A program made the translations under genes and the position numbers. Under the pieces are notes generated by a model. The model saw nothing but the letters and a program-made list of their open reading frames with translations, was not told the DNA's origin and searched no databases. Shown here piece by piece: positions 6,684-26,260 of a stretch of DNA of 58,730 nt. Source of the stretch: Candidatus Woesearchaeota archaeon (GTDB lineage Archaea; Nanobdellota; Nanobdellia; SCGC-AAA011-G17; JACQNH01); contig JAHFIJ010000001.1 of the NCBI GenBank assembly GCA_023246445.1, positions 1-58,730 on the forward strand, read 5' to 3'. Every line of letters begins with the position of its first letter. Positions within the stretch are counted from its first letter, which is position 1.

Positions 6684-9600
6684 TTATTTTAAACATTTAC
6701 CATTACTACATTTTTTCTTATTAGGACAGATTACTGTTTTTGTAGCTCTTGTTTTATCTGGTTTACATAGCTGCTCAGTAATCTTAGTCGAGCTCGCACA
6801 TACATCTTTATAATCCACACCATTAAATGTAACTACACCATATGAAAAGATATTATCCCCATCAATGTCTGAACAAGTTCTAGGCTTGCAAGCACCTTTA
6901 TCGCAGCCATTTTCGCATCCTATAGAATAAGTACCTCTCGTATTATCTGCTTTACATTTTTGCTCAAGAACTGATTTCTTATCTGAAGAACAAACATCAT
7001 AATAAGAAACACCATTGAATATAACCTTTTGCTTAACATCAGGTTCATTACCCTCATCAGTGCAAACATTCACAGTTTTACAAGCTCCATCTTCACAACC
7101 ATCAGGACAATCAATAGTATTAAATACAAATTTATTCTGATTACAAGTCCACTCAATTACCTGATTATCTTTACAGAAATCTGTTTTCGAAAATCTCTCC
7201 TCTTTTCCACTAAGGGTTATTGCCATCGCTTTAACCTTCCCTTTAGTAAACCCATTATCTCCATCAGAATCAATACATTCCATTAAAGAACCATCACCAT
7301 TGCATTTTCCTATAGCCACTCCATTTTCACTTAAAGCACAGCCATACTCACATTGATAATTTTCAGATTTAGCCTCTCCATTTTCACAATAATTCTCTTC
7401 TATTATTGTATAAATATTATCCTTAGCAAGACACAGATCATCTATTTTATTATCCCCTGTAATTACTCTTCCTGATTCATAATAATTTTTTCCATTATCT
7501 GAATCACTACAAGGCGGTTGAACATCCAAAACAACATCATCATTATCATCATACCAGCCATTCCCGCATTTATCAGCAGAATCACCAACGAATTCAAACA
7601 CACCCCTGATTACATGATACCCATCAGTGTTATCTAAATTGAAATTAAATTCAAAATCCTCAAGACCACTACCCTTACAAAGAACCGCTTTAATGGTTGA
7701 AAAATCTCTTTTTTCAGTTCTATAGACCAGATTAAAATTATCATAAGGCCCCCAACAAAAGACCTTCACATTTACCTTGACCGCATCGCCCGGTCTAAAT
7801 CTTCCCCCATTTAAATTTTCAACACTAATGCTCTCAATAGATTCATCTGACATATAATAACCCGCACCACCATCTTTACAAAAGAAAGGTTGTATTGTGT
7901 TTGGTTGATTTGGTTCATTCCCTCCTTCAATATTGTCTCTTCCCCCAATCAAAGACTCATCAGCTACGCAGGGAGATTCACTGCATATTTTTGCGACATT
8001 TAAAATACCAATCCCAGAATCAATTATTACATTTCTATCTTCAGTAGTCTCTCCATCAGTATTGAACACTTTTAATCTTAAAACATTTATATCACCTTTT
8101 TTTAATTTTAATTTTTCTGCAAAAAATAAAACACCATTTTCAACAGCCTTATCACTCCTTGTTAGCTCTCCCCATTCAATTGGATTTTCACCTAAACCAA
8201 GCTCTAATTTATAAGAACTGAATTTTCTACCGCTAGCAGTTCCTTTTATTTCAAGATTATTACCATCAACAACCCCATTTGTATCAATCTTGGCGATCGC
8301 AGGTTGTCCTCTAAAAGAAACAACATCCAAGGCATTAATCCTTCCAGCTCCTTGTGTATTAACGTCTTTGCCTAAATCAACAGTCTTGCTTTTCAATACT
8401 AATTTAACTTGCAAAGGTGTTAAATCTGGATTCTTTTGTAACAATAAAGCAGCTAATCCACTAACATGAGGTGTTGCCATTGAAGTTCCGGAAATTGCTA
8501 TATGATTCTCAATTTCAGGGTTACATTCCCTCAAACCTTCCAACCAGTAATAATATTGAGCAGCACAAATATCAACACCTGGCGCTGTTACATCTGGTTT
8601 CATCAAATATCTAGTTTGCCCATATTCATCATTCCAAATAATAGGTCCTCTTGAACTAAAAGGTGCAACATTATCAGATTTATCACTAGCCGCCACAGTT
8701 ATAGCCTTTCTAGCAGTTCCAGGAGTTCCAATTGTTCCAATTCCCCAGTATCCAGAATTACCAGCAGCGATTATTGCAACAACACCATTATCAACAACAG
8801 TGTCTATTGTTTTGGACATAGGATCATCCGGACCACAAAATAAACCATATCTCCCACAACCGGCCCCTAAACTTAAACTTATAATATCCAGATGGTCAGA
8901 AAAATCTCCATCTTGATTTGGATCCATACTTCTTTCAATTCCTGCCATTACACCAGCAAAGCTCCCGCTACCAAAACTATTCAATACTTTATAAGCATAA
9001 ATCTTAGCATCTGGAGCAATACCATTTAATTTTCCTTTTCCAGCAGCAGTAGCTGCCACATGAGTCCCATGCCCATGATCATCCATCGCATCAGTATCAT
9101 CATTCACAAAATCATAACCACCAATTACCTTATCGCAAGGTCCTGATTCTGGTTGTTGTGGAATACTTGGGCGGTTAACTTCAAGAACAACATCATCATT
9201 ATCATCATAAGGTCCAATTCCACAGGGGCTTAAACCTCCCCCATATACAAAAGAAGCTCTTATCACATGATAACCATCAACATTATCAAGAGTTACATTA
9301 AAATTAAACTCCTCAAATTGCTGTTCACCATTACAATTAACAGATTCCAAAACCTTAATTTTGTCTTCATTTTGATAAACTAAATTCAACTTGTCATAAG
9401 GTCCCCAACAATAGACCTTCACATTTACCTTGACAGCATCGCCCTGTCCAAATCTTCCCCCATTTAAATTTTCAACACTAATGCTTTCTATAGATTCGTC
9501 TTGCTTATATACCCCAGCAATGCCATCTTTACACCTGATGTCTATAGTATTTGGTTGATTTGGTTCATTCCCCCAATCAATATTGTCTCTTCCCCCAATC

Positions 9601-19750: not shown

Positions 19751-20632
19751 CTAAAAAATCTTTCCAAAAAATCCATTCTCTTCCAGTTTCAACAGCTCTT
19801 TGTATAATTTTTTCTGTTTATCATTTAACTTTTTAGGCGATTCAATAGTTATCACAACATATAAATCTCCAGATTCTCTCCCATTAAATCCAGGCTCACC
19901 CTCACCTTTAACTCTCAACATACTTCCGGGTTCAACGCCTTGTGGAATTTTAATTTTAATTTTTTTCTCAACTTCAATTTGTGCACTCCCATTACACTTC
20001 TTACAAACCTTTTCAATCATTAAGCCTTCACCACCACAAGATCTGCAGTTTGTTATAGAAGTGAAATATCCAAATGGTGTTCTTCTCTGAACTCTTTTCT
20101 GTCCGCTTCCCTGGCAATCTGAACATTTAATTAGTTCTTTAGTCTCCGAGCCAGTCCCATTACAATGCTTGCAAGATTCTAATTTATTAAGCTCTAAAAT
20201 TTTTTCAACGCTTAAAGCAGCCTCTGGAAATGAGATTGTTAAATCATATCTTAAATCATTGCCTCTTGTTTCCTTTCTTCTTTGATGTCCAAAACCGTGT
20301 CTTCCGCCAAATATATTGAATATATCCGTAAAATCATTAAATCCAAAATCTCTGAAAACAGATTCAAAATCCGCTCCTCGAAATATGTCTTCTTGCGAAT
20401 ATCTTTGATCAAACCCCGCATGTCCAAACTGATCATAAGTTTGTCTTTTAGTATCATCAGATAAAACAGCATAAGCCTCTGAAATTTCTTTAAACTTTTC
20501 CTCAGCTTCTTTGCTTTTATTCAAATCAGGATGATATTTCTTTGCTAAATGTTTATATGCTTTCTTTATTTCCTCTTTAGAAGTATTTTTACTTAAGCCT
20601 AAAATCTCATAATAATCTTTTTTAGTTGTCAT
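19751..20632 (-). CDS. dnaJ: DnaJ co-chaperone, short form
   Basis: 293 aa. J domain with HPD (KKYHPDLNK), G/F region, four CxxCxGxG-type Zn motifs ([32 protein letters not shown]). The C-terminal substrate domain II appears absent. Confidence 0.9.
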
Positions 20633-20670: not shown

Positions 20671-21621
20671 TTAATATTCCCCAGAGGGTAAACCACATAT
20701 TTCCAAAAGAGCATTTAATCTGTTTGGTATTGCCCACTTTAAAAACTCTTTTCTTGAAATAGGAACCATATGATTCCTATAATTTTCAGAACTTAATATT
20801 TGTCTTAAATCCCCGGATTCAAGCCGATTGCCCTTCCCATTAGGATTTTCAAATGAAATACTTCCAAGACCTATCTGCGATGCATTTCCGCCAATTCCAA
20901 GTAATCTTGACATATGGGTATCTGAAGTTGCTATCAATGGTTTTTTATGTATTTCAGCAAAAACCTCGGCAAGAATATTAGATCTTTCCTGATAAGCATC
21001 TCTTAAAAACCTAAATGGTATTTTTTTAGAAAACATTGACATAACAAAATTTTTATATTTATCGGGCAGTAAATTTATACATTGTGCGTTCCACTCTATT
21101 GCATCAAATTCATCAAGATGTTCATCTAACATTCTTTTCCCCATTCCCCCCCAAACTTCAGTATAAGGATGATCTGCAATTACAACTGCATCCTGATCTT
21201 TAGCCATTTTTATAGCTTCCTCCATTGAAGTAGGTTTATTAATCGGAATCTGACGTGGCAAATCAAAAAATAAAATATGCCCTTTTTCTGTTGGGACCTC
21301 CTGCCCCTGATAAAATTGAACAATATCTTCAACACCATCTATTTTTCTAGAGACTGCAAACCATCCAGCTTGTTTAGCTACTACCTCATAACTTCTTCCA
21401 TTTCTATTATGCATCGGTTTCATAAGATTACTTGAAAAATCCAAATATCTAAAGTCTGGCTTGCCAGGCCTTGGAAAATTAGTTATGCCAATACAACTAA
21501 CCCCATTTGAGATACAAACATCAACTAAATCCTTTAATTTAAACTCCCCTGGAGTAAAAACCGGATGTGTATGTGCATCTAATGTTTCTATGTTTCCAGG
21601 AAATTTAATTATCTCTGCCAT
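20671..21621 (-). CDS. PHP-family metal-dependent phosphoesterase
   Basis: 316 aa. LDAHTHP N-terminal His motif, IADHPY, and terminal SDTHM. The start codon lies 3 nt after the dnaK stop. Confidence 0.7.
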   Translation of the reverse strand: MAEIIKFPGNIETLDAHTHPVFTPGEFKLKDLVDVCISNGVSCIGITNFPRPGKPDFRYLDFSSNLMKPMHNRNGRSYEVVAKQAGWFAVSRKIDGVEDIVQFYQGQEVPTEKGHILFFDLPRQIPINKPTSMEEAIKMAKDQDAVVIADHPYTEVWGGMGKRMLDEHLDEFDAIEWNAQCINLLPDKYKNFVMSMFSKKIPFRFLRDAYQERSNILAEVFAEIHKKPLIATSDTHMSRLLGIGGNASQIGLGSISFENPNGKGNRLESGDLRQILSSENYRNHMVPISRKEFLKWAIPNRLNALLEICGLPSGEY

Positions 21622-21623
21622 TT

Positions 21624-23438
21624 TTATTTTACTTCCTCTGCGTCCGCATCATACACTTTTCCATTTTTATTTTCATTCTCAGGATTTTCTTGCTTTGATT
21701 TGTTAGCCTCCTGATACATCTTAGTTCCTATCTCCTGGGCAACTTTTTCTAATTCAGATAATTTCTCTTTAATATCCTCAACATTATCTGATTTAATAGC
21801 TTCTTTCAGCTCTTTTAATTTAGGCTCAATCTTGTCTTTGGTTTCCTGATCAATCTTATCTTTATAATCGGTTAACAATTTTTCAGTTGAATAGACTAAA
21901 GTGTCTGCATTGTTTTTAATTTCAATCAATTCTTTTCTTTTCTTATCCTCTTCAGCAAACTTTTCAGCCTCTTCTCTCATTCTTTCAACTTCTTTCTTGT
22001 CTAGTTTTTGTGTAGACGTAATCCGTATAGACTGTTCTTTTCCTGTTCCTAAATCTTTAGCAGTTACATGAATTATTCCATTTGCATCTATATCAAATGT
22101 AACTTCAATCTGAGGCACACCTCTTGGCGCTGGCGGAATTCCAGTAAGTTCAAATCTCCCAATAGATTTATTGTCTGTAGCCATTTCTCTTTCACCCTGC
22201 AAAACATTTACAGTTACAGCAGGCTGATTATCTGCAGCAGTTGAAAATATCTGAGATTTTTTAGTCGGTATTGTAGTATTTCTTTGTATCAATGGTGTTT
22301 TTATTCCGCCTAAGGTTTCAATTCCTAATGTTAAAGGAGTTACATCTAATAACAAGATATCCTTCACGTCTCCAGCTAAAACCCCTGCCTGAATAGCTGC
22401 GCCCATTGCAACACATTCCATCGGGTCTACTCCGCCCTCAGGTTTCTTATCAGTAATTTTCTCCACAAATTGCCTTACAATCGGCATTCTTGTAGGCCCG
22501 CCAACTAAAATTATTTTATCAATCTGTTTTGAGCTTAATTTAGAATCTTTTACTGCCTGCTCAACAGGTTTTCTGCATCTCTCAATTATTGGTGAAACTA
22601 ATTTTTCTAATTGCGCCCTAGTTAATTTTAATTGTAAATGCTTTTGTCCAGATACAAATGGTAAATTAATATCAGTCTCTAAAACTGTTGATAATTCTAT
22701 TTTAGCCTTTTCAGCAGCTTCTCTTACTCTTTGAACTGCAGTAGCATCTTCATTCAAATCAATTCCAGTTTGTTTTTCAAATTCCCCCATTATAAATTTC
22801 ATCAGCACAGCATCCATATCTGTTCCGCCTAATTGCGTATCGCCTGAAGTGGATTTAACCTCAAATACTCCATCACCAAATTCCATTATAGTTACATCTA
22901 ATGTTCCTGCACCCAAATCAAATACTAATATTTTAGCCTCTTTGTCTTGTCTATCCAAACCAAATGCTAATGAAGCAGCAGTTGGCTCATTTACAATCCT
23001 TACAACCTCTAATCCCGCTATAGTCCCGGCATCTTTCGTAGCCTGTCTCTGATCATCATCAAAATAAGCAGGCACAGTTATAACTGCCTTATCAATCTTA
23101 TCACCTAAGAACTGTTCAGCATCCTTCTTGATTTTTTGCAATACAAAAGCAGAAATCTGTTGCGGGGTATATTCTTTATTATGAATTTTATACTTAAAAC
23201 TTGTGCCCATTTTTCTCTTGGCAGCCATCACTGTTGCCTCTGGATTTGAAACTGCCATTCTTCTAGCAGGCTCTCCAACTAAAACTTGTCCATCTTTTGT
23301 AAATGAAACTACAGATGGAAATGCCTTGCCATATAATGAAGCACCCTCAGCGCTTGGAATTATAACTGGTCTCCCCCCTTGCATAACAGCAGCTGCAGAA
23401 TTCGCAGTGCCCAAATCTATACCTATGATCTTTGCCAT
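21624..23438 (-). CDS. dnaK: Hsp70 chaperone DnaK
   Basis: 604 aa. [20 protein letters not shown] and [11 protein letters not shown] motifs. Confidence 0.97.
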
Positions 23439-23439
23439 T

Positions 23440-24033
23440 TTATTTTCCCCCCAAAATCTCTTCTTTCTTTTTTATTTCTTTTCCGAAGTTTTCTCTTAAG
23501 AAAAGCTCTCCCGAAGCCACTTTAACTCTAGATGGCCTCAATAGTTTTTCCTTAAACATATACCCCTTTTGTATCTCTTCAACAATCTCACCATCTTTTT
23601 TACCATCCACATTTACTTTTTGTATTGGTTCATGCTTAAATGGATCAAACTTATCCCCTACAGATTTAATCTCCCTTAAACCATGATCTTCCAATGTTTT
23701 TTTCAGATTATTAAATATCATTTTCACACCTTTTACAATCTCTTCATCCTCAACTTGTAAATTTTTAATAGCATTCTCAAAATCATCCATAACATTCAGC
23801 AACTTAAATGTTAAATCAAATGCAGCATATTCTTTATGCATCCTTACCTGGCATTCAATCCTCTTTTGATAGTTCTGAAACTCTGCCTGTAATCTCTGCA
23901 AATGCTCTATTGTATTCTTTAACTCATTGTTTTGTTTTTCTAATTCTTCAGTCAACTCTTTATTCCTCTTATCTAAGTCTATGTTTTCATTCTCTCTTTC
24001 TAAATCCTTTAATTTTTGTGGGTTTTTAGTCAT
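23440..24033 (-). CDS. grpE: nucleotide exchange factor GrpE
   Basis: 197 aa. Coiled-coil N-terminus, then GrpE core (FDPFKHEPI...[14 protein letters not shown]). The stop lies 1 nt before the dnaK start. Confidence 0.9.
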
Positions 24034-24062: not shown

Positions 24063-24099
24063 GTTGACCTTAAATCAACATAGTCTAGATAATATCAAC
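24063..24099. promoter_or_regulatory. candidate tandem operator sites in the grpE-dnaK promoter
   Basis: Site 1 at 24063-24079 is GTTGACCTTAAATCAAC. Site 2 at 24083-24099 is the degenerate GTCTAGATAATATCAAC. Both lie between the TATA (TTTATAAA, 24102-24109, minus strand) and the grpE ATG. Confidence 0.4.
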
Positions 24100-24220
24100 C
24101 CTTTATAAACCTTTCGTTTAGCTGGATTTGACCACTAACACGTCATAAACTTCATCTTTAAATTAAATTCTAAAACACAGGTTCAGAAGCCTTTTATATT
24201 CAATTAAATCGTTCAAAAAA

Positions 24221-24646
24221 ATGGGTAAAAACAACTATACTCCTTATTTTAGCTGTGTTATTCATACAATAGGCAACTATTTTGATAGTCTTTTAGCCAT
24301 ATTACCAAGATTCAATCACCAAGTAGAACTTCCAAAGGATACAATCCCAAAAGAACCAACTTTAGAAGAATTAAGACAAAGAATTGAAAAAGCTGACCGA
24401 ATGATACTTGAAGGCCTAGCAAAAAGAATTAAAGCTTGCGGAGAATTAGGCGAATTTAAAAGAGTATATAATGTGCCTGTTCCTGATTGGAAAAGGGAAC
24501 TAGAAGTAGAAAAAGAATGGGTAAAAATAATCAACCCTTCCCAAAATAGGCTTTTAGTATATGTTCAACAAATGTGTCGTCTGGTAATAGAGATGTCTAA
24601 AGTGATACAGGAAGATAAACAAATAAAAGATTACAATCCCAAATAA
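24221..24646 (+). CDS. AroQ-type chorismate mutase-like protein
   Basis: LEELRQRIEKADRMILEGLAKRIKACGELGEFKRVYNVPVPDWKRELEV matches the CM type II helix pattern (LR..ID..D..L..LL..R......K......D..RE). The ~45-aa N-terminal extension is uncertain. Confidence 0.5.
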   Translation: MGKNNYTPYFSCVIHTIGNYFDSLLAILPRFNHQVELPKDTIPKEPTLEELRQRIEKADRMILEGLAKRIKACGELGEFKRVYNVPVPDWKRELEVEKEWVKIINPSQNRLLVYVQQMCRLVIEMSKVIQEDKQIKDYNPK

Positions 24647-25053
24647 CTAAAAACCAATAATAAAATATTAACTAAATAAATACTGTTGCAGATTAAACAA
24701 AAGCTTCTAACCTTAAAATATAATATATAAGCCAGATATATTGAACCTAAAACAGCTATTAAAGATAAATAAAATACATAAGTCATACTATAAAAGCTCA
24801 ATAAAAACACAATAATGTAAAATATCATTCCATAAAAAGAATTAGATATCCCAAAGGTCTTTCCATAATGGCTATTAAAAGCCTTGGTGCAGGAGATTTT
24901 ATTATTTATATCGCAAACAGCCTTATAATTTTTATTTTTAGATTTTATTTCAACATAACAAGAATACAAGGATAATAATAAACCAATAATACTTACTATA
25001 ACCACCCCTAAAGAAGATATCATACTTTTAGATATTAAAGAGATATACACCAT
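24631..25053 (-). CDS. VKOR-family (vitamin K epoxide reductase-like) membrane thiol oxidoreductase
   Basis: 140 aa, 4 TM helices. Loop Cys pair C-x7-C (CDINNKISC) and CxxC in the last TM (CLIC). Confidence 0.7.
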   Translation of the reverse strand: MVYISLISKSMISSLGVVIVSIIGLLLSLYSCYVEIKSKNKNYKAVCDINNKISCTKAFNSHYGKTFGISNSFYGMIFYIIVFLLSFYSMTYVFYLSLIAVLGSIYLAYILYFKVRSFCLICNSIYLVNILLLVFSYLGL

Positions 25054-25085
25054 AAAAATAAAATTATTTATGCATATTTAAATCT

Positions 25086-25676
25086 TTAGTAGCTTAAAAA
25101 AATAATCTTGCATTTAGACATCTTTTTATAAAACTCCAAATCAGGTTTCTTGTTTCCTGCTGTGTAATATATTTGATCTAATCCAGTCCAGCCAGTAAAC
25201 CACCCACCAGCTTCAAATAAAACAGTAAAAAAATGTATTATTAAATTAGATGACCCTAAAGAAGATAAAAAAGCAGCTAAAATTATCATACCCAGCCCCC
25301 CAAATGCAAAATACCAGCCCTTTCTTTTTATTTTACTTACTTCCAGATTAATTGAATTATGATGCTTCCTGAAGTGTTCTTTCAATCTCTTCTTTATTTG
25401 TTCTTCACTATTAAAATTTCTTAATTTTTTAGGAACAAGAAATTCCAAACCTACATCTTCTTTATCTATACTTGCCCTTTTAGCCTCCTGCAAAAAATCA
25501 TCAGATAATGCCTTTTCATGATAAGGTCTTGGATCAAAACCAGAAAAAATATCTTCATAAGTATTCAAAATTAAACTGATTTTAGATCTTTGTAATAATT
25601 TCCACTCTTTTCCTTTTTTAAATATCTTTCTCTTCTTCGCTTTTATATAATATCTTTTTTTCACTCTCTTTTTCAT
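25086..25676 (-). CDS. membrane protein, function unknown
   Basis: 196 aa. Lys/Arg-rich N-terminus and two C-terminal TM helices. Confidence 0.45.
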   Translation of the reverse strand: MKKRVKKRYYIKAKKRKIFKKGKEWKLLQRSKISLILNTYEDIFSGFDPRPYHEKALSDDFLQEAKRASIDKEDVGLEFLVPKKLRNFNSEEQIKKRLKEHFRKHHNSINLEVSKIKRKGWYFAFGGLGMIILAAFLSSLGSSNLIIHFFTVLFEAGGWFTGWTGLDQIYYTAGNKKPDLEFYKKMSKCKIIFLSY

Positions 25677-25831
25677 ACTTATGTTAAGAACTTTATATAT
25701 TTAAAGATAATGCTTGCAATCTAAACCATATGTATGACATAAACATATGTCCATTTTTTCTTTAATTTCTAATCATTTAAAACAATTTATGAAATGCAGC
25801 TAAAAGAAATTCGGTTACTTTATAAACTAAC

Positions 25832-25848
25832 GTTGACCTTAAATCAAC
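25832..25848. promoter_or_regulatory. candidate operator in the promoter of the wHTH regulator gene
   Basis: Exact GTTGACCTTAAATCAAC, 4 nt downstream of TATA TTTATAAA (25820-25827) and ending 1 nt before the ATG at 25850. Confidence 0.4.
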
Positions 25849-25849
25849 C

Positions 25850-26260
25850 ATGAAAGAAGAAATCTATGAGAAAATACTAATAATAAGAACTAAAAAACCA
25901 GAGGGCAATAATATTAATGCAGACTTGCAATGGTTCTCAAGATCATTAGGATTATTTAATGAAAGAGACAGGGAAAAAAGCTGTTTTAGGATATTTATAG
26001 AATTAGTTAAAGCTACTAAAAATGACAAAAAACTAAGAAGCGATGATCTAGCAGAAAAATCACATCTGTCAAGGGCAACAGTTATCCATCACTTAAACAC
26101 CCTTATGGAAAGAGGTCTTGTAATAAGTAAGAATAATAGATATCTTTTAAGGGAAAGTTCTTTCAATGACCTACTAGAAGATTTAGAAAAAGATTTCTTT
26201 AAAACCTTCAAAGATTTAAAAAAGAAGGCTATAGAATTGGATAGAGAATTAGAAAATTAG
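25850..26260 (+). CDS. winged-helix (ArsR/MarR-like) transcriptional regulator
   Basis: 136 aa. LAEKSHLSRATVIHHLNTLMERGLV recognition-helix region and a C-terminal coiled coil. Confidence 0.7.
   Translation: MKEEIYEKILIIRTKKPEGNNINADLQWFSRSLGLFNERDREKSCFRIFIELVKATKNDKKLRSDDLAEKSHLSRATVIHHLNTLMERGLVISKNNRYLLRESSFNDLLEDLEKDFFKTFKDLKKKAIELDRELEN

Follow-up and report, generated by a model that had tools for sequence, protein, structure and literature searches.

A Woesearchaeal Hsp70 operon and a winged-helix gene share a 17-bp palindrome

A 17-bp palindromic site and a 136-amino-acid winged helix-turn-helix (wHTH) protein found on a 58,730-nt contig of an uncultured Woesearchaeota archaeon very probably form an on/off switch for Hsp70 stress genes that has been kept across hundreds of Woesearchaeota-type archaea. 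We refer to this whole stretch of DNA as the window; it is contig C23 of a metagenome-assembled genome of 883 kb (46 contigs, 31% G+C). Comparison with related genomes makes it likely that the protein is a dimeric autorepressor of the operon grpE-dnaK-PHP-dnaJ and comes off the DNA under stress. An original prediction made from the sequence of the window had proposed that an autoregulated repressor controls the Hsp70 operon, and that proposal is supported by the uniqueness of the site in the genome, by its linkage to the two genes, and by its specificity for lineages with the regulator. Binding by the protein, the direction of control, and the signal are inferred; we hold the assignment of the factor to the site with more confidence than the direction of control or the signal.

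The Hsp70 (DnaK-DnaJ-GrpE) machine of archaea is of bacterial origin. To our knowledge, no stress regulator has been described for DPANN archaea, and we know of no account of Hsp70 control on archaeal promoters. Many DPANN archaea carry the Hsp70 machine (PMC8204110), and a paper on DPANN genomics describes the presence of the bacterial KJE system with no mention of a regulator. A search of the full-text literature found no description of either the regulator or the motif.

The 17-mer GTTGACCTTAAATCAAC is present in two exact copies in the 883-kb genome, at positions 24063-24079 and 25832-25848 of the window, and the window contains no further copy even when up to three mismatches are allowed. 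As the original prediction had it, the identical palindrome lies at both promoters: each copy is just downstream of a TATA box, one of them serving grpE-dnaK-PHP-dnaJ and the other serving the gene for the 136-amino-acid protein. The copies are identical up to the exact ends of the palindrome and differ in the bases that flank it (t/a versus c/c). We call the copy at grpE O1 and the copy at the regulator gene OR; a degenerate second site at grpE is called O2.

In archaea, a transcript is expected to start at a set distance from the center of the TATA box, here about 27 nt. The predicted 5' end of the grpE transcript is near position 24079 on the minus strand, and O1 would span approximately +1 to +17. 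Its position relative to the TATA box is the same in 39 aligned relatives. The elements of the grpE promoter follow one another as the transcription factor B (TFB) recognition element (BRE), the TATA box, 2 nt, O2, 3 nt, O1, 29 nt, and the ATG at 24033. O2 lies 20 bp from O1, center to center, and covers approximately -20 to -4; its score of -2.4 bits with a weight matrix derived from the sites of other genomes is within the top 0.03% of window positions. At the regulator promoter, the order is the TATA box, 5 nt, OR, 1 nt, and the ATG at 25850. The transcription start site (TSS) is predicted at approximately 25849-25850 from the usual archaeal TATA-to-TSS distance, which would give a leaderless mRNA and would leave OR filling the gap between the TATA box and the TSS (approximately -17 to -1). 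The distance of 1 nt to the ATG had been foreseen correctly, and the distance from the TATA box had been given as 4 nt where we counted 5. A scan for bacterial sigma-70 promoters and terminators was uninformative, with counts equal to those in shuffled sequence.

The repeat is not explained by chance

By itself, a repeated 17-mer is only weakly significant. In 100 first-order Markov simulations of the window, repeated 17-mers arose at a mean of 3.25 per simulated window, and the caveat attached to the original prediction, that a few exact 16- to 17-mers are expected by chance, was therefore right. Repeats with 5-nt palindromic arms had a mean of 0.03 per window (3 of 100 simulations). Across the 883 kb, the pattern GTTGA-N7-TCAAC has three occurrences, two of which are O1 and OR. 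When the same sequence was scanned with the weight matrix, the runner-up (C22:7492, 15.3 bits) and the next match (C19:1116, 12.7 bits) were both within open reading frames (ORFs), and no further promoter site was found in this genome. The motif is thus not scattered, the sole two strong sites being those in the grpE and regulator promoters. The idea of a wider regulon in this genome was dropped in the absence of a third promoter site in the scan.

These data bear on whether the identical copies could have arisen by chance in AT-rich DNA or could be left over, without function, from a promoter duplication. About three repeated 17-mers are indeed expected per window, but palindromic ones are rare in the simulations, the identity stops exactly where the dyad does, and the position of the motif in the promoter is unchanged across dozens of genomes whose regulators share 31 to 76% identity. 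A chance repeat is rejected on the basis of the simulations, the uniqueness in the genome, and the comparative data, and we regard an explanation by chance or functionless duplication as extremely improbable.

An operator-like sequence outside the window, GTTAATTTTAAAACAAC (G000 C28:47947-47963; 10 bits, two arm mismatches), lies 15 nt into the ORF of a LonB-like protease. It is probably a chance match, though Lon would be a plausible member of the regulon.

The regulator gene, grpE, and the site are linked in related genomes

A six-frame search of this genome and 60 relatives of the same order (61 genomes, ~50 Mb) identified a homolog of the regulator in 25 genomes and GrpE in 29. Both were present in 23 genomes, the regulator only in 2, GrpE only in 6, and neither in 30 (Fisher p = 3e-9, ignoring phylogeny). 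The two regulator-only genomes carry a form with 31 to 34% identity. In at least 15 of the 23 genomes with both, the genes are divergent neighbors on one contig. A similar picture emerged from 201 high-quality genomes sampled evenly from the phylum, all of them from one class: the regulator was found in 161 and GrpE in 169, with both in 156, the regulator only in 5, GrpE only in 13, and neither in 27 (Fisher p = 7e-19, ignoring phylogeny). Among species representatives in GTDB, at least 593 loci encode a relative of the regulator. In the best 80 of these, grpE is divergently upstream within 3 kb in 66, usually with dnaK next, and 50 of the 66 divergent loci have GTTGA-N7-TCAAC no farther than 150 nt from the grpE ATG when a single mismatch in the arms is allowed. 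A heuristic was used to choose start codons in the relatives, and several of the 16 misses among the 66 are due to a wrong start. The linkage of motif, regulator, and hsp70 genes, which the original prediction had named as a check, is thus kept across the order and the class (66 of 80 loci; 156 of 201 genomes with both genes).

The motif also follows the regulator. A grpE site scoring at least 12 bits is present in 20 of the 23 regulator-bearing genomes of the order and in none of the 6 that have GrpE but lack the regulator. Of six additional GrpE-only genomes scanned at the class level, five lacked the motif and one (G185) had a perfect operator, so that the motif is absent from the grpE promoters of lineages without the regulator with this single exception (1 of 12). 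The exact pattern GTTGANNTNANNTCAAC has 21 sites in the 61 genomes; 14 of them fall in promoters of grpE or of the regulator gene, each time in a genome that has the regulator, and the remaining 7 have a different, GATAAT-type center and are not confined to such genomes.

The site and the protein appear to vary together as well. The clade in which the recognition helix is altered to HHI[S/T/N]HL has systematically changed half-sites, GTT[A/C/T]AC. This covariation suggests protein-DNA coevolution and is not proof of it; a one-to-one recognition code between helix residues and half-sites was set aside, as the correlation is just at the level of clades.

Could the palindrome be a real Hsp70 operator that is read by another factor, with the wHTH neighbor regulating something else or binding another sequence? 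We consider this improbable in view of the adjacency of the regulator gene and the motif in most loci, the contrast between regulator-bearing and regulator-lacking genomes, the changed half-sites of the HHI[S/T/N]HL clade, and the presence of a site in the regulator promoter whenever that gene is split from grpE (see below). The idea draws on the perfect operator of G185, on the lack of a clean code between recognition helix and half-site variants, and on the fact that binding of the regulator to the site rests on sequence comparison.

Some genomes with GrpE have neither the regulator nor the motif (G016, G041, G058, and G184 of family f15; also G054, G086, and G194), and hsp20 is found directly upstream of grpE in these. 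In four of the six GrpE-only genomes of the order, hsp20 is fused in front of grpE.

A divergent subfamily of the regulator (31 to 35% identity) is encoded at loci L023 to L025 (G059, G042, and G017, genus g16). The subfamily has a different conserved upstream block, tgtcaaNaaNNNgttgattcaaacgaaa. G017 and G042 lack GrpE, and the grpE gene of G059 (L030) is preceded by a GTGAC-N10-GTCAC palindrome in place of the usual dyad. The subfamily may be a paralog with changed specificity. Operator-like sequence also occurs within dnaK: the codons for the conserved DnaK peptide FEVKST, TTTGAAGTnAAATCnAC, score 5 to 15 bits in many relatives (e.g., L029:918, L038:892, and L141 at G185:C1:68213) and just 5 bits in the window. 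This looks like a coding coincidence, and the resemblance leads to false positives in regulon scans.

The operator is a 6-5-6 dyad repeated at each promoter

Alignment of 39 to 41 independent sites on the grpE sense strand gave the consensus GTTGAC-N5-GTCAAC, with the dyad GTTGAC-TTAAA-GTCAAC. The centers of the half-sites are 11 bp apart, which would place both half-sites on one face of the helix. Inner columns on which the sites had not been selected were conserved (C/T at position 6, T at 7 and 8, A at 10, A/G at 11, and G/A at 12), with T8 in 39 of 41 sites and A10 in all 41. Because these columns are conserved though unselected, the true dyad is 6-5-6 with a TTAAA-like conserved center, and the 5-7-5 geometry given in the original prediction has to be revised. 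A BRE-TATA block, GAAAg-TTTATATA, stands at a fixed distance, with approximately 27 nt separating the TATA center from the first base of the site downstream (~+1). In 39 relatives, the sole upstream offset at which the weight-matrix score was raised was exactly -20 bp, two helical turns from O1. The element there is strongest in its TATA-proximal half (GTTnAnnTTA), so the degenerate second site predicted in the grpE promoter has turned out to be a conserved element. The upstream architecture across the order is that of the window: BRE-TATA, degenerate site, 3 nt, GTTGAyTTAArGTCAAC, and the grpE ATG.

Conservation of the center also speaks to an RNA-level explanation, a hairpin in the 5' untranslated region of the grpE mRNA that acts as a thermometer or as a processing or stability element. 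O1 is predicted to be the first 17 nt of that mRNA, a hairpin of up to 8 bp is possible, and symmetric arm variants in relatives (GTCGA..TCGAC and GTAGA..TCTAC) keep complementarity. The predicted fold, however, is no better than that of shuffled sequence (z = -0.85), and the hairpin would be distant from the start codon, with no Shine-Dalgarno sequence to mask. Moreover, OR lies between the TATA box and a leaderless ATG and would be mostly untranscribed, and the loop positions T8 and A10 are as conserved as the arms, which are conserved in sequence and not merely in pairing. We dropped the hairpin on the strength of the z score and the mostly untranscribed second copy, and we regard it as highly improbable.

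In most genomes, a single intergenic region between grpE and the regulator gene serves both genes. The window and the same-genus genome G002 have genes inserted between the two, and each promoter has its own operator. A second clade has an operator adjoining the ATG of the regulator gene (1 to 9 nt away). The regulator gene is 0.8 to 1.8 kb from grpE at three loci of this clade (L066, L099, and L102), and the same own-promoter operator is present at three others (L073, L075, and L101), with grpE 99 nt away at L075 and no grpE match recorded at L073 and L101. Because an operator in the regulator's own promoter recurs where the gene is split from grpE, we argue that autoregulation is probably a selected property and not an accident of the divergent layout. 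The split layout, with one operator per promoter, is the window's own contribution: since each promoter keeps its own operator, it is natural evidence that control of the operon and autoregulation are both under selection.

The regulator is a distant relative of Lrs14-, Sso10a-, and ArsR-like proteins

The family alignment (A1) comprises 22 sequences with 31 to 76% identity. Its conserved parts are an N-terminal module (ITIIxxxKP, then N..LQWFSxSLGLFxxRDKEKSCFRIF), the recognition helix LSRGTVIHHLNKL, the wing, and a long C-terminal helix. The AF2 model (pLDDT 85.6) predicts a disordered tail (residues 1 to 21), helices at 22-32 and 40-57, a helix-turn-helix (HTH) formed by helices 64-71 and 75-87, a beta-hairpin wing (91-100), and a long helix (105-133). 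The winged helix followed by a long C-terminal helix resembles the dimeric proteins Sso10a and Lrs14, which we count as support for a dimeric repressor.

The regulator scored 27.4 bits with PF01022 (HTH_5), above the cutoff of 22 for an ArsR/SmtB-type wHTH, and relatives carry precomputed PF12840 or PF01022 matches. Public annotation of the family goes only as far as "winged helix-turn-helix" or "ArsR family transcriptional regulator." The NCBIfam models for Lrs14, Sta1, and ArsR were all far below their cutoffs (e.g., 27.5 bits versus 90 for Lrs14, NF040939), as was that for the Sso10a family (Sso10a_fam, 14.8 versus 60). The score with a metalloregulator model was 21 versus a cutoff of 55, and no canonical metal-ligand sets (CxC, DxHxxxxxxH) were seen in the family alignment; C45 is mostly conserved (K, S, V, T, or G in some sequences), and an HH pair in the recognition helix is near-invariant. 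When profile A1 was compared with all PDB chains, it matched the Lrs14-like protein ST1889 (2d1h) with an E value of 1e-7. ST1889 was also listed by Foldseek, for which Sso10a (1r7j) was the top match. These profile and structural matches place the regulator as a distant Lrs14/Sso10a/ArsR-like winged helix.

Proposed mechanism of control

We propose that a dimer of the 136-amino-acid protein recognizes the 17-bp dyad GTTGAC-N5-GTCAAC. One dimer would occupy O1 at the predicted grpE transcription start, and a second would probably bind cooperatively at O2, between the TATA box and the start. The bound dimers would bar RNA polymerase from the grpE promoter, while TATA-binding protein (TBP) and TFB may stay on, and grpE-dnaK-PHP-dnaJ would be silenced in the absence of stress. 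With OR in the gap between TATA box and start, the regulator would restrain its own synthesis by negative feedback. Stress, either heat or unfolded protein, would then free the repressor from DNA, and both intrinsic thermosensing and titration of DnaK are possible as the release signal.

A more specific and more tentative proposal, which we think possible but rather doubtful, is that the regulator acts as the sensor in a chaperone-titration loop, which would be the first in Archaea. The N-terminal module would be a client site for DnaK or DnaJ: KILIIRTKK here and ITIIKxxKP in relatives offer a hydrophobic core with basic flanks in a disordered tail, and the LQWFSxSLGLF helix comes next. While free, DnaK would maintain the repressor in a form able to bind DNA, and unfolded proteins would draw off DnaK, so that grpE-dnaK-dnaJ and the regulator gene would be derepressed. 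Such a loop would mirror the bacterial HspR-DnaK and sigma32-DnaK systems, but on an archaeal TATA/TFB promoter. If true, the loop would illustrate the rewiring of a bacterial chaperone system, gained by lateral transfer, to a regulator of archaeal type.

Several observations weigh against repression of the Hsp70 operon by this protein. Shared ancestry makes the co-occurrence counts nonindependent; the single family f15, for example, accounts for four of the genomes with GrpE only. G185 has a perfect operator and a standard BRE/TATA before grpE (G185:C1:66198-66214, locus L141), and no ortholog of the regulator was detectable in this 95%-complete genome, only a generic wHTH protein at E = 2e-5. 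Genus-mates of G185 do have the regulator, and the genome represents either an assembly gap or an orphan operator. Conversely, the regulator-bearing genomes G025 and G059 lack a recognizable grpE motif, and G014 has perfect arms with a deviating spacer. As for the link to heat, no hsp20 gene was found in the window's genome, and no other promoter there has the site. Finally, in the common divergent layout the sites are upstream of the regulator's own TATA box, where they could leave the regulator gene unaffected or even favor its expression.

This last point raises the alternative that the protein binds the site as an activator or dual regulator, for example by recruiting TBP or TFB to the regulator promoter or by being needed for induction, and not repression, of grpE. 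Archaeal wHTH factors of the TrmBL1 type activate or repress depending on the position of the site, and the divergent layout puts the sites upstream of the regulator BRE and TATA box, a typical position for an archaeal activator. At grpE, in contrast, the site always follows the TATA box, with its first base at the predicted +1, and OR in the window is between the TATA box and the TSS; both are repressor positions (PMC9133787). We thus consider activation quite unlikely and retain repression as the preferred reading.

Comparison with known heat shock regulators

Phr of Pyrococcus furiosus (PF1790) and HSR1 of Archaeoglobus fulgidus (AF1298) are the only archaeal heat shock transcription regulators described in a 2022 review, and neither controls Hsp70 (PMC9133787). 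The Phr operator overlaps the TSS and RNA polymerase is excluded, and the same has been proposed for HSR1 (PMC9133787). HSR1 reads the dyad CTAAC-N5-GTTAG (PMC9133787). The Phr consensus is TTTA..TGGTAA..AAAA, and the regulon consists of hsp20 and an AAA+ ATPase gene.

Like Phr and HSR1, the regulator described here is a small wHTH protein with a C-terminal helical part (for dimerization), is apparently autoregulated, judging from the site in its own promoter, and has a small regulon of chaperone genes. Its operator lies over the predicted TSS, downstream of the TATA box; the Phr-like placement suggested in the original prediction is therefore borne out, with O1 at the predicted TSS and O2 in the gap between TATA box and TSS. 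A dyad with a 5-nt spacer is shared with HSR1. The operator sequence is different (GTTGAC-N5-GTCAAC), the target is a bacterial-type grpE-dnaK-dnaJ operon and not hsp20 or AAA+ genes, and the hosts are mesophilic DPANN archaea in contrast to the hyperthermophilic hosts of Phr and HSR1. The Phr homolog PH1932 (1uly) matched profile A1 at E = 0.32, in the HTH only; among all PDB chains, the Phr structure 2P4W gave no match at E ≤ 1, and neither 1ULY nor 2P4W was among the top 50 Foldseek matches. Homology with Phr or HSR1 is not supported, as no significant profile or Foldseek match was obtained.

Two bacterial systems are also comparable. HspR, with its HAIR operator (Actinobacteria, Helicobacter, Deinococcus), is a MerR-type autoregulated repressor within a sigma-70-driven dnaK operon. 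The pair described here is similar in having a dedicated, putatively autoregulated repressor at the dnaK operon, an inverted repeat at the promoter, and a very small regulon, and HspR/HAIR is a plausible model for feedback by DnaK. Unlike HspR, however, the regulator is an ArsR/Lrs14-like wHTH protein acting on an archaeal TATA/BRE promoter, and scans of Pfam and NCBIfam gave no MerR match for it. HrcA is a protein of ~340 amino acids with an extra sensor domain (PF01628), and its operator, CIRCE, is TTAGCACTC-N9-GAGTGCTAA. The likeness here lies in a repressor gene beside grpE-dnaK-dnaJ and in a palindromic operator with a fixed spacer at the promoter; the protein, at 136 amino acids, and the operator sequence are different, and the Pfam and NCBIfam scans gave no match to HrcA. 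The closest solved relatives, of the Lrs14/Sso10a/ST1889 group (PDB 2d1h and 1r7j), likewise have a wHTH followed by a long helix, which forms a coiled-coil dimer in those proteins, but they lack the extra conserved N-terminal module and the specific link to Hsp70 genes.

Set against the published literature, the regulator represents a new, nonhomologous family in the proposed role of Phr/HSR1, HspR, or HrcA. As a candidate repressor/operator pair, the 136-amino-acid protein and the 17-bp site open a way into the stress regulation of DPANN archaea, with both genes present in 156 of the 169 sampled Hsp70-bearing genomes of the class. The pair would also serve as a case study of a transferred bacterial operon brought under an archaeal-type regulator and, as a compact operator/repressor module, is a possible genetic tool for archaea.

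Genes at the locus

The features of the locus are collected in Table 1. Pfam matches to GrpE, HSP70, DnaJ, and winged-helix families confirmed the gene assignments made in the original prediction.

Table 1. Genes and promoter elements of the Hsp70 locus, in window coordinates
Feature	Position	Strand	Sequence or evidence
dnaJ, last gene of operon	19751..20632	-	Pfam DnaJ, DnaJ_CXXCXGXG, DnaJ_C
316-amino-acid metallohydrolase-like (PHP/CehA-type) gene	20671..21621	-	Weak NCBIfam CehA/McbA match
dnaK (Hsp70)	21624..23438	-	Pfam HSP70, E = 4e-228; tight spacing after grpE
grpE, first gene of operon	23440..24033	-	Pfam GrpE, E = 7.8e-40
O1, strong operator of grpE promoter	24063..24079		Reads GTTGATTTAAGGTCAAC on grpE sense strand; weight matrix, 27.0 bits
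O2, degenerate second operator	24083..24099		GTCTAGATAATATCAAC; grpE sense strand, GTTGATATTATCTAGAC; between TATA box and TSS
grpE TATA box	24102-24109	-	TTTATAAA; sequence
grpE BRE	24110-24116	-	cgaaagg; sequence
Regulator TATA box	25819-25826	+	TTTATAAA; sequence
OR, operator in regulator's own promoter	25832-25848		Weight matrix, 26.6 bits
136-amino-acid winged-helix regulator gene	25850..26260	+	Pfam HTH_IclR, HTH_5, and HTH_24 above threshold; AF2 model; family alignment

The 316-amino-acid gene between dnaK and dnaJ has no Pfam match and, judging from the spacing, is probably cotranscribed with its neighbors. If our model is right, this CehA/McbA-like gene shares operator control with dnaK and dnaJ. 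Three unrelated genes lie between grpE and the regulator gene (24221-25676) and encode a chorismate-mutase-like protein, VKOR, and a 196-amino-acid basic/membrane protein. In the same-genus genome G002, the VKOR and 196-amino-acid genes are kept in place, and the chorismate-mutase-like gene is absent.

Elsewhere in the window, positions 7530-7900 and 9186-9550 have long runs of 17-mers in common at a distance of approximately 1655 nt, a pattern suggestive of a recent duplication or of a tandem pair of paralogs.

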